Part shown: positions 4,413 to 6,005 of the stretch, piece by piece
How positions within the stretch are numbered: the stretch's first letter is position 1
How the letters are laid out: each line of letters starts with the position of its first letter
Sequence record: NC_054922.1
Length of the DNA: 64,000 bases
From: Escherichia phage vB_EcoM_KAW1E185
Strand: one strand, 5' to 3'
The notes under the pieces: generated by a model
Database searches by the model: none
What the model was told of the DNA's origin: nothing
What the model saw: the letters and a program-made list of their open reading frames with translations, nothing else
Made by a program: the position numbers and the translations under genes

Positions 4413-4488
4413 TGGTCGAGGCAGTAGGGATCGAACCTACGACCTAGGACTTAGAAGGTCCTTGCTCTTCCTTCTGAGCTATGCCCCG
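4413..4488 (-). tRNA. tRNA-Arg (anticodon UCU)
   Basis: Hand-folded cloverleaf: anticodon arm AGGAC-CTTCTAA-GTCCT, T-loop GGTTCGATCC, encoded CCA. Confidence 0.85.
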
Positions 4489-4492
4489 TAAT

Positions 4493-4568
4493 TGGGGTGA
4501 CCGATGGGAGTCGAACCCATGACTACGAGAATCACAATCTCGAGTTCTACCAACTGAACTACGGCCAC
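4493..4568 (-). tRNA. tRNA-His (anticodon GUG)
   Basis: Anticodon arm CGAGA-TTGTGAT-TCTCG, T-arm ATGGG-TTCGACT-CCCAT, discriminator C, encoded CCA. Confidence 0.8.
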
Positions 4569-4682
4569 ATTAATACCTACTCCAACAATCAAGATGTCTT
4601 CACACGAAATTAAGAGAAGAGTGATCAGTTCAACCCCTATAATCGCGTCAAGTAGATATTAATGTGACAGTTGTCACAAATT

Positions 4683-4757
4683 TGGCGGACGTGATAGGAT
4701 TCGAACCTATAACCAATCGCTTAACAGGCGATCGCTCTGCCATTGAGCTACACATCC
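4683..4757 (-). tRNA. tRNA-Asn (anticodon GUU)
   Basis: Anticodon arm ATCGC-CTGTTAA-GCGAT, T-loop GGTTCGAATCC, encoded CCA. Confidence 0.8.
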
Positions 4758-4761
4758 AAAT

Positions 4762-4848
4762 TGGTGGGGAGTGGTGGAGTCGAACCACCCGAGTCGCAAT
4801 GACAATGAATTTACAGTCCACACCGCTACCTCTACGGGATAACTCCCC
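4762..4848 (-). tRNA. type II tRNA, probably tRNA-Tyr (anticodon GUA); D-arm non-canonical
   Basis: 87 nt; acceptor GGGGAGT/ACTCCCC, loop CTGTAAA, long variable arm, T-arm GGTGG-TTCGACT-CCACC, encoded CCA; anticodon stem has two G-U pairs. Confidence 0.6.
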
Positions 4849-4857
4849 AAATTAATT

Positions 4858-4932
4858 TGGTGGCCCTGGGTGGAATTGAACCACCATCTGGCGATTATGA
4901 GTCGCTTGCTTGAACCTTCCAGCTACAGGGCC
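4858..4932 (-). tRNA. tRNA with anticodon CAU (Ile2 or Met), in the position of T4 tRNA-Ile
   Basis: Acceptor GGCCCTG/CAGGGCC, anticodon loop CTCATAA, T-loop GGTTCAATTCC, encoded CCA. Confidence 0.75.
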
Positions 4933-4933
4933 T

Positions 4934-5009
4934 TGGTGCTGATTGACGGAATCGAACCGCCGACCTTCTCATTACAAGTGAGTTGCTCTACCTACTAAGC
5001 TAAATCAGC
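4934..5009 (-). tRNA. tRNA-Thr (anticodon UGU)
   Basis: Acceptor GCTGATT/AATCAGC, anticodon loop CTTGTAA, T-loop GGTTCGATTCC, encoded CCA. Confidence 0.85.
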
Positions 5010-5014
5010 AAAAC

Positions 5015-5104
5015 TGGCGGAGGCGATAGGATTTGAACCTATGAGTCGCCGGAGCGACTGCCGGTTTTCAAGACCGGTGCATTAAACCACTCTGCCACGC
5101 CTCC
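5015..5104 (-). tRNA. tRNA-Ser (anticodon UGA), type II
   Basis: 90 nt; anticodon arm CCGGT-CTTGAAA-ACCGG, long variable arm, T-loop GGTTCAAATCC, encoded CCA. Confidence 0.85.
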
Positions 5105-5110
5105 AAATAT

Positions 5111-5761
5111 TTATATATTGTTAATTTGATTTAGAATTCTTTTTGCTTGAGTATGACTTACGCCAATATGCTTAGCATATTTAGACAATTCGCCACGTTT
5201 AGAAAAATCATATAATTTAGAAATTTCTATTCTTCTTTTTCTTTCATCCGCAGAAACTTTTGCTTCGTTTGCTTTTGCTATTTTACGTTTAGCTTCTTGA
5301 GAATGAGTTTTACCAGCAAAGCCATTCTTCATTAATCCATTTGAAGACCATCCTTTTAATTTTCCGTTAGAATGTGCCTTTTTAACACCCAATGAAATTA
5401 ATTCGCGTTGCTGATCTGTCATAGGATAATTATTTATATGGTCCCATCCACCTTCACCTCCAAGTTTTAAATTATACACATCTGGTCTATTTAAAAACTC
5501 TTCTGTGACAATATTTTTCTCGGCTTCAAGCATAGATTCTTTATCGTCAAAATACTCTAATATTTCTTTAGAAAAATTTTCTATACCATATTTATCTTGG
5601 GCTCTTTTTAATAATTTACCAGAACCCATATATCCATCATCTAAATTTTCGGTAGAATGCACACCAATATAAATTTTATTATTAATTTTATTTGTTATTT
5701 TATAAAGATAAAAATGCATATCAGTCCCTAATAAAGAACTGAGCGTCTCACGACGAGTCAT
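5111..5761 (-). mobile_element. segB: GIY-YIG homing endonuclease (SegB-like) wedged between tRNA-Gly and tRNA-Ser
   Basis: N-terminal GIY-YIG module YLYKITNKINNKIYIGVHS plus basic C-terminal region; lies inside the tRNA array as T4 segB does; true start may be the internal Met at 5719. Confidence 0.8.
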
Positions 5762-5765
5762 AAAT

Positions 5766-5839
5766 TGGAGCGGATAATGAGAATCGAACTCACATCATCA
5801 GATTGGAAGTCTGAGGTAATACCATTATACGATATCCGC
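5766..5839 (-). tRNA. tRNA-Gly (anticodon UCC)
   Basis: Acceptor GCGGATA/TATCCGC, anticodon arm TCAGA-CTTCCAA-TCTGA, T-loop GAGTTCGATTCTC, encoded CCA. Confidence 0.85.
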
Positions 5840-5844
5840 AAATT

Positions 5845-5931
5845 TGGTGCGAGAAGTGGGACTCGAACCCACAAGGAAATCATTCCGCAGCATTTTAAGT
5901 GCTGTGCCTTTACCAATTTGACCATTCTCGC
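5845..5931 (-). tRNA. tRNA-Leu (anticodon UAA), type II
   Basis: 87 nt; acceptor GCGAGAA/TTCTCGC, anticodon arm CAGCA-CTTAAAA-TGCTG, T-loop GGGTTCGAGTCCC, encoded CCA. Confidence 0.85.
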
Positions 5932-5932
5932 G

Positions 5933-6005
5933 CTGGGAATAAAGGACTCGAACCTTTGCATCTAGCAGTCAAAGTGCTATGCCTTACCAACTTGGCTAAT
6001 TCCCA
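5933..6005 (-). tRNA. tRNA-Gln (anticodon UUG), no encoded CCA, abuts tRNA-Leu
   Basis: Acceptor TGGGAAT/ATTCCCA, anticodon arm TAGCA-CTTTGAC-TGCTA, T-loop AGGTTCGAGTCCT; only 1 nt separates it from tRNA-Leu. Confidence 0.8.

Follow-up and report, generated by a model that had tools for sequence, protein, structure and literature searches.

A ten-gene tRNA array in Escherichia phage vB_EcoM_KAW1E185, with a SegB-type endonuclease, a virus-borne tRNA-Tyr and a tRNA-His cassette

Gene content of the array and its relatives

The window analysed here, a stretch of 64,000 nucleotides (nt) of Escherichia phage vB_EcoM_KAW1E185 (NC_054922.1), carries a transfer RNA (tRNA) array at positions 4413-6005. 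ARAGORN, run on the whole window, called ten tRNA genes and no more, each of them minus-strand and within these limits (Table 1), and thereby recovered the end points, order and anticodons of the original prediction, which had been made from the sequence alone. The homing endonuclease that it placed between tRNA-Gly and tRNA-Ser was also found, as an open reading frame (ORF) with a GIY-YIG domain. Homologues of the T4 stable RNAs rnaD and rnaC lay just outside this interval, with a 116-aa ORF between them and tRNA-Arg. As both RNAs are present downstream of the array, the RNA gene cluster spans 3785-6005 and is larger than first described. Overall, the locus is very likely a Tequatrovirus tRNA-rich region composed of ten functional tRNAs, a free-standing SegB-type gene, a small ORF, rnaD and rnaC, which would serve both codon supply and counter-defence.

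A covariance check was carried out with Rfam model RF00005 (gathering score 29 bits). Nine of the ten tRNAs passed with scores between 59 and 74 bits and E-values between 1e-10 and 1e-14, including tRNA-His and tRNA-Asn (65.1 and 74.1 bits), for which this check had been proposed; tRNA-Tyr was the exception (see next section). Nine genes encoded the terminal CCA. Only tRNA-Gln was without it, and this gene directly abutted tRNA-Leu, like the Gln-Leu dimer of T4. The 3' end of tRNA-Ser (5015-5020) encoded CCA (…CGCCTCCGCCAGTTTT), compared to …CGCCTCCGTAATTTT in T4. By analogy with T4, the array would be co-transcribed and processed.

The tRNA with a CAU anticodon, labelled Met by ARAGORN, had its best E. 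coli matches among annotated tRNA-Ile genes (81.6% over its full length of 75 nt). Its acceptor stem (GGCCCUG/CAGGGCC) contained the pairs C4-G69 and C5-G68, which are TilS determinants. It is therefore most likely, from its sequence, a tRNA-Ile2 of the lysidine type that reads AUA, as the annotators of RB18 also considered. This allele differed from the tRNA-Ile of T4 and T6 and equalled that of T2.

Table 1. Features of the RNA gene cluster, in minus-strand order (positions are those of the window).
Feature	Position	Strand	Evidence
tRNA-Gln (UUG)	5932..6005	-	ARAGORN; RF00005 66.0 bits; 100% identical to T4
tRNA-Leu (UAA), type II	5845..5931	-	ARAGORN; RF00005 59.3 bits; identical to T4
tRNA-Gly (UCC)	5766..5839	-	ARAGORN; RF00005 65.8 bits; identical to T4
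SegB-type GIY-YIG homing endonuclease gene (segB')	5111..5761	-	between Gly and Ser; Pfam GIY-YIG
tRNA-Ser (UGA), type II	5015..5104	-	ARAGORN; RF00005 62.6 bits; T4 alignment
tRNA-Thr (UGU)	4934..5009	-	ARAGORN; RF00005 71.7 bits; near-identical to T4
CAU tRNA	4858..4932	-	ARAGORN ("Met"); RF00005 59.9 bits
tRNA-Tyr (GUA), virus-borne type	4762..4848	-	ARAGORN; fails RF00005; identical to T6 tRNA-Tyr
tRNA-Asn (GUU)	4683..4757	-	ARAGORN; RF00005 74.1 bits; identical to T2
Structured leader element of about 95 nt, unannotated	4569..4663	-	closing helix reaches base -1 of tRNA-His
tRNA-His (GUG)	4493..4568	-	ARAGORN; RF00005 65.1 bits
tRNA-Arg (UCU)	4413..4488	-	ARAGORN; RF00005 66.1 bits
116-aa ORF	4044..4394	-	ORF list; phrog_3355 (function not known) 2e-51
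rnaD (T4 "species 2" stable RNA) homologue	3930..4044	-	blastn 99.1% over 116 nt to T4 rnaD
rnaC (T4 "species 1" stable RNA) homologue	3785..3923	-	blastn 99.3% over 139 nt to T4 rnaC

The 1.85-kb region at 4300-6150 was 98-99% identical to vB_Eco_QOTSP, KIT03, RB18, AR1 and dozens of further records from Tequatrovirus. Annotations of these ten tRNAs and of the endonuclease already exist in such relatives (RB18, AR1, KIT03, RB51, ECML-134 and others), so the array is a known one. The phage is a Tequatrovirus of the RB18/AR1/KIT03 type. In RB18, AR1, KIT03, vB_Eco_QOTSP, RB51 and their kin, the tRNAs stand in the same order and the endonuclease also lies between tRNA-Gly and tRNA-Ser. No difference of substance separated the RB18/AR1/KIT03-type records from the window; the leader of tRNA-His is left unannotated there, and the anticodon stem of the RB18 tRNA-Tyr has one G-U pair fewer. 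The suggestion that the layout marks a distinct T-even group was thus correct, but the group is a large one, whose members have already been sequenced and annotated. In itself the array adds nothing new, as it is annotated in many GenBank records and as codon supply, SegB homing and the action of tRNA-Tyr against Septu and retrons are published. The Tyr and Asn tRNAs of T-even relatives were described in 2008 (Brok-Volchanskaya et al., PMC2330249).

The layout of the window (Gln, Leu, Gly, segB', Ser, Thr, CAU, Tyr, Asn, leader, His, Arg', 116-aa ORF, rnaD, rnaC) was compared with those of T4, T6 and T2. The T4 cluster (NC_000866, 70.9-72.5 kb) shares its genomic position with the window and reads Gln, Leu, Gly, Pro, Ser, Thr, Ile, segB, Arg, rnaD, rnaC; its annotation agrees with the statement of the original prediction that T4 has eight tRNAs, with Pro and without His, Asn and Tyr. 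Gln, Leu and Gly were 100% identical between T4 and the window, Ser and Thr nearly so, and rnaD and rnaC 99% identical, whereas the Ile and Arg alleles of T4 differed from those of the window. The segB gene of T4 lies between Ile and Arg and has another C-terminal half, and no ORF separates its tRNA-Arg from rnaD. T6 (Gln, Leu, Gly, Thr, Ile, Tyr, segB, Arg) shares with the window an identical tRNA-Tyr and a SegB-type endonuclease within the array, but is without Ser, Asn and His, and its Ile and Arg are the T4-type alleles. T2 (Gln, Leu, Gly, Pro, Ser, ORF, CAU, Tyr, Asn, Arg', 116-aa ORF) matched the window at no less than 98% identity over the CAU-Tyr-Asn-Arg' block and the 116-aa ORF downstream; it keeps Pro, has no SegB, carries a 133-aa ORF in the place of Thr and has no 190-nt cassette of leader and tRNA-His. 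The Arg' allele, unlike that of T4 and T6, is the same in T2 and most Tequatrovirus records, and was at least 95% identical in about 419 records.

The 116-aa ORF, for which no Pfam family was matched, was present in T2 and RB51 and absent at the same place in T4. A replacement of rnaC and rnaD by this ORF was ruled out, as blastn found both RNAs at 99% identity downstream of it. Two ORFs from the program-made list (3185-3835 and 3841-3975) overlapped rnaC and are probably over-extended.

A virus-borne tRNA-Tyr with a shifted D-arm

The Tyr gene scored below the gathering threshold of RF00005, and its best match within the clan was tRNA-Sec with 30.9 bits (gathering score of tRNA-Sec, 47). Together with the two G-U pairs of its anticodon stem, this agrees with the original prediction, which had called the gene atypical in its D-arm and weak in its anticodon stem. 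A covariance score below threshold had also been named as evidence against the His, Asn or Tyr-like genes. The Tyr score did fall below it, but a control placed the cause in the model: the host genes tyrT and tyrV scored 53.4 bits in RF00005, and none of the phage Tyr genes tested (T6, BF23, a Felix O1-like phage, a Jiaodavirus and Vequintavirinae phage LTH01) passed. Because host tyrT passed while every phage-type Tyr gene tested failed, the failure is a limit of the general model and not a sign of decay. The fold of the single Tyr sequence was no better than that of shuffled sequences (z = -1.1) and therefore uninformative.

The structure was resolved at the family level, using a set of 84 parsable members (77 unique) obtained by a pattern scan of viral contigs. 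Across all 84, the connector between the acceptor stem and the D-stem was 4 nt long (U-A-N-N), or 5 nt in a few members, and was followed by a D-stem of the form C-N-G-U/G-C-N'-G and a loop of the form A-R-N(N)-G-G-U-A. In this shifted register all four D-stem pairs formed in 84 of 84 members, the second pair being C-G in 61, G-C in 17, U-A in 4 and A-U in 2. The canonical register would place C-C or U-C at the third D-stem position of every member. The D-arm drawn by ARAGORN for the window gene (UCCC/GCGG, with a C-C mismatch) was accordingly rejected as being in the wrong register, since one of its positions is never paired across the family. All stems were 94-100% paired in the 77 unique members, with two to five pair types at most positions and a few invariant ones, and covariation was seen in the acceptor, anticodon, variable and T stems. 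A de novo RNAalifold prediction returned the complete cloverleaf, shifted D-stem included. The atypical D-arm is therefore a family-wide slide of the D-stem by 2 nt in the 3' direction.

The window gene conformed to this family, with a 4-nt connector (UAUC), the D-stem CCGU/GCGG, the loop AGAGGUA, a long variable arm, A73 and an encoded CCA; it does not have the canonical connector of two nucleotides (8 and 9). Across the family, the GUA anticodon and A73 (84/84), U33 and A37 were invariant, the T-loop was conserved as UUCRA, and the variable region of 10-16 nt formed a stem. The identity elements of tyrosyl-tRNA synthetase are the GUA anticodon, A73 and a long variable arm, and all were present in the window tRNA-Tyr. 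Two connector nucleotides are given as the rule in a review of non-canonical tRNAs, which does not mention the 4-nt case (PMC7609411), and the shifted D-arm is not discussed in the papers on the T5 and T6 tRNA-Tyr (PMC11555353, PMC13096335). The altered core geometry of this viral class might be relevant to tRNA-targeting nucleases.

Homologues were found in more than 1200 phage records, including Tequatrovirus, Vequintavirus, Felixounavirus, Tequintavirus, Karamvirus, Jiaodavirus and Phapecoctavirus. Their GenBank labels were inconsistent (Tyr, "tRNA-OTHER", "tRNA-Pseudo-GTA" or none), and ARAGORN missed the copies of PG7 (L003, 1501-1588) and ESCO25 (L010, 301-388). The analysis thus corrects the secondary structure of a tRNA-Tyr that is widespread among viruses and that annotation software folds wrongly, overlooks or labels "pseudo". 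Outside phage records, the viral-type Tyr gene occurred on plasmids in 269 of 5,426 complete E. coli genomes and never on a chromosome. The plasmids concerned were about 70-110 kb in size and carried Asn, Thr and Ser tRNAs alongside (NZ_CP024264, 1421-1971, and 272 other plasmid records); they are probably phage-plasmids. Among 185,579 bacterial species representatives, the pattern matched only 88 stretches, none of them in Enterobacterales. These were mainly on contigs of metagenome-assembled genomes of Lachnospiraceae and other gut Clostridia, with some on Tahibacter chromosomes.

Several side observations were made during these searches. Records MG065655 and MG065664 ("Campylobacter phage C2/A132") contained a coliphage-type tRNA-Tyr (85-97% identical), and their genomes resembled rV5-like or Felix O1-like phages; their host labels may be wrong, or the records contaminated. 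In the array of Escherichia phage rV5_ev168 (L005, 1891-1989), ARAGORN called a 99-nt "tRNA-???" with a four-base anticodon (atcc), and over all the fetched loci it also called ten tRNA-Pyl, two suppressor ("Stop") tRNAs and one tRNA-SeC.

The window tRNA-Tyr was identical to that of T6 over 87 of 87 nt, and the T6 gene has a documented role against defence. The PtuAB nuclease of Septu cuts tRNA-Tyr in the variable arm (Chihara et al. 2026, PMC13096335). According to the same study, the T6 tRNA-Tyr is expressed (northern blot and tRF-seq), although relatively unstable, and its overexpression restores infection under Septu. T6 escapers amplified the unit of tRNA-Tyr and segB (718 bp, in tandem) in a SegB-dependent manner, and T4, which has no tRNA-Tyr, was unable to escape (PMC13096335). 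In T5, tRNA-Tyr neutralises the PtuAB of retron-Eco7 (Azam et al. 2024, PMC11555353). The T5 family has the same virus-borne class of tRNA-Tyr with the shifted D-arm, and the BF23 copy was 84% identical to that of the window, but the phage family and the array differ; in addition, the T5 tRNA-Tyr reportedly resists cleavage, whereas the T6 copy, identical to that of the window, is reportedly cleaved and acts by dosage. Because the cloverleaf covaries and because T6 expresses an identical gene that rescues it from Septu, the window gene is judged to be a genuine tRNA and not a pseudo-tRNA. The same identity points to an anti-defence role of tRNA-Tyr in the window phage.

The SegB-type endonuclease, cassette exchange and the tRNA-His cassette

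The product of segB' matched Pfam GIY-YIG (26.8 bits) and the homing endonuclease family phrog_314 (2e-54). Residues 15 to about 108 were nearly identical to the SegB of T4 and T6, while the C-terminal ~105 residues gave no alignment with either protein. This C-terminal half was at least 95% identical in 54 phage records. It was also 60-70% similar to Jiaodavirus endonucleases and about 41% similar to the 133-aa ORF of the T2 array, with a weak NUMOD3 hint and a helix-turn-helix-like end. As judged by these alignments, SegB' is a chimeric allele with the catalytic half of T4/T6 and an unrelated C-terminal half with a presumed role in DNA binding. Over its first ~260 nt, the gene proper was 100% identical to T4 DNA. 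Its true start is probably the Met at 5719, which matches T4 and T6, and the start at 5761, given by the ORF list and in RB18, would then lie 14 codons too far upstream.

The gene occupies the site that tRNA-Pro has in T4 and T2 (between Gly and Ser), unlike T4 segB, which lies between Ile and Arg. The SegB motif GTTCSAWTY was found in the T-arms of tRNA-Gly (GTTCGATTC), tRNA-Thr and tRNA-Asn (GTTCGAATC, 4698-4706). The T2L homologue of the window tRNA-Asn holds the preferred cleavage site of T4 SegB, and homing of T4 SegB replaces the Met-Tyr-Asn-Arg block of T2L with viability kept (PMC2330249). More generally, a strong association links SegB homologues to tRNA genes, which SegB cuts (PMC13096335).

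The differences in content among T4, T6, T2 and the window phage are consistent with gain, loss and swapping of cassettes around SegB-type endonucleases, since the window has a T4-like block on one side and a T2-like block on the other, segB' at the position of Pro and a clean insertion of tRNA-His. In such a scheme, SegB-type endonucleases would cut T-arm sequences and so promote the gain, loss or replacement of cassettes, and recombination at the repeated CCAAAT-type junctions between tRNAs would allow further exchange. A SegB allele with another C-terminal half would have taken the position of tRNA-Pro. The right half of the array (CAU-Tyr-Asn-Arg') would be the T2 version, into which a 190-nt cassette of leader and tRNA-His was inserted between Asn and Arg'.

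Compared to T2, this cassette is a clean insertion at 4491-4680, the rest of the block being at least 98% identical. Both of its junctions fall in the CCAAA/T-T motif that trails each tRNA, which suggests that it was gained through exchange by junction recombination. It contains a short hairpin (4663-4678), the ~95-nt leader element and tRNA-His. The 114-nt gap between Asn and His (4569-4682) had a minimum free energy of -32.7 kcal/mol (z = -4.36), and none of 200 shuffled sequences folded as well. The core of the leader was 81-89% identical in Karamvirus and Jiaodavirus, always directly 5' of tRNA-His. In its RNAalifold structure, a 14-bp closing helix runs up to base -1 and is accompanied by two hairpins. 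At four pairs both bases had changed in a compensatory way within a set of just five sequences; the covariation support rests on 5-6 sequences in all. When viral contigs were scanned for a 14-base pattern of the leader, most matches were due to chance and only eight were true copies, all in Tevenvirinae. The leader had no match in Rfam and was annotated in none of the relative records examined. A conserved, unannotated RNA element joined to a puzzling tRNA-His is thus brought to light.

Two other identities of the Asn-His gap were rejected. It gave no meaningful alignment to T4 rnaC or rnaD, and a scan for sigma-70 promoters showed no minus-strand site there; the TTGACG-like hexamer of the gap reads TCAACG in the Jiaodavirus-type copies (TNG87 and EnC07).

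The tRNA-His itself is unusual at its 5' end. Its sequence runs TATTAAT upstream, GTGGCCG from the first base and CGGTCAC-C-CCA at the 3' end, so that U stands at -1 and C at position 73, with the register of the D-arm setting G as +1. The genome-encoded G-1 opposite C73 that characterizes bacterial tRNA-His is thus absent, and E. coli histidyl-tRNA synthetase (HisRS) normally requires G-1. Among the other phage His genes sampled, about half had G at -1; those without it had no comparable leader, and most of them abutted the upstream tRNA directly. A literature search on phage tRNA-His without G-1 found nothing specific. Of the four GUN (queuosine-family) tRNAs, which are targets of colicin E5-type nucleases, the array has three (Tyr, Asn and His), but no support was found for such a link; T2 has Tyr and Asn without His, and Asp is absent. 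For His, the literature offers a single connection, the nicking of several tRNAs, His among them, by retron Eco2, and the link is speculative. The cassette may represent a stable processed small RNA, a module for unusual 5' maturation or a counter-defence tRNA. Tentatively, two features of the locus could turn out to be undescribed, namely the His cassette as a functional RNA unit and the virus-borne class of tRNA-Tyr with a 4-nt connector, a class found in unrelated phage families and over several host phyla.

Codon supply, counter-defence and competing explanations

Codon usage in 71 long window ORFs (19,168 codons) was set against that in 42 annotated genes of E. coli K-12 (14,748 codons). 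The codons most enriched over E. coli were AGA (8.7x), ATA (5.7x), GGA (3.9x), TCA (3.8x), ACA (3.8x) and ACT (3.5x), followed by AAT (3.1x), TTA (3.0x), TCT (2.8x), CCT (2.7x) and TAT (2.3x). All of these top-enriched codons except CCT are read by tRNAs of the array, and nine of the ten tRNAs match enriched codons. At the amino acid level, Tyr (1.63x) and Asn (1.55x) were the most enriched in window ORFs and His was the most depleted (0.53x relative to E. coli). The codon-supply idea therefore holds in general, and demand leaves tRNA-His unexplained because His is the most depleted amino acid.

The frequencies of the 61 codons were also compared with those of 50 kb of T4, and they matched at r = 0.997, with a GC content of 36.1% in both. 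The codons of Tyr, Asn, His and Pro were used at the same frequencies, CCT and CCA being as frequent in the window as in T4 although tRNA-Pro is absent. Phages with equal codon demand thus carry different tRNA sets, and tRNA content varies within Tequatrovirus without following codon usage.

In the reading of the locus as a region of supply and counter-defence, the tRNAs of the array would read the codons that the AT-rich phage overuses compared to E. coli (AGA, AUA, GGA, UCA, ACA/ACU, AAU, UUA and UAU), and tRNA-Tyr, given its identity to the T6 gene, would replenish the pool of tRNA-Tyr cut by the PtuAB nucleases of Septu or retrons. The content and layout of the array, its sequence identities, the codon statistics and the fold of tRNA-Tyr were observed directly, while co-transcription and processing as in T4, the anti-defence role in this phage and the history of homing are inferred. 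Some points weigh against this reading. The adjacency of Tyr and segB seen in T6 is not found here, as Ser, Thr and the CAU tRNA separate segB' (5111-5761) from Tyr (4762-4848), so that escape by a T6-style 718-bp amplification may work differently. Finally, tRNA-His, depleted in demand and without an encoded G-1, fits neither supply nor any documented counter-defence.

An alternative explanation is that Tyr, Asn and His are neutral passengers, moved by homing or junction recombination and not kept by selection in this phage. Close relatives with identical codon usage do differ in layout, the Met-Tyr-Asn-Arg block can be removed from T2L by SegB homing without loss of viability, and tRNA-His came as a discrete cassette for which demand offers no rationale. 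However, the Tyr and Asn sequences were nearly invariant over hundreds of records, the stems covary across phage families, and the structure of the His cassette was kept across genera. Moreover, T6 deleted for its tRNA region is more sensitive to Septu (PMC13096335). Neutral passage is therefore considered unlikely for these genes.

Another alternative, stated in the original prediction, is that the tRNA set marks a lineage whose codon demand is unlike that of T4 and to which the set is tuned. The set does match the codons enriched over E. coli, with Tyr and Asn as the most enriched amino acids, but the codon usage of the window is indistinguishable from that of T4, and T4, T6, T2 and the window phage nevertheless carry four different tRNA sets. 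Pro codons are unchanged without a tRNA-Pro, and His is depleted despite the presence of a tRNA-His. Tuning to a different codon demand is thus very improbable.

The same prediction raised the possibility of a pseudo-tRNA or regulatory RNA for the Tyr gene, and such a reading, in which the gene has decayed or has a regulatory role and does not work as a tRNA, can be given hardly any credit: the failed RF00005 score, uninformative single fold, "tRNA-OTHER" or pseudo labels, copies missed by ARAGORN and reported instability of the T6 tRNA-Tyr would agree with it, but the D-stem pairs in its shifted register in every family member, the remaining stems covary around invariant A73, GUA, U33 and A37, the family is kept in phages of unrelated families, and the identical T6 gene is expressed and rescues its phage.

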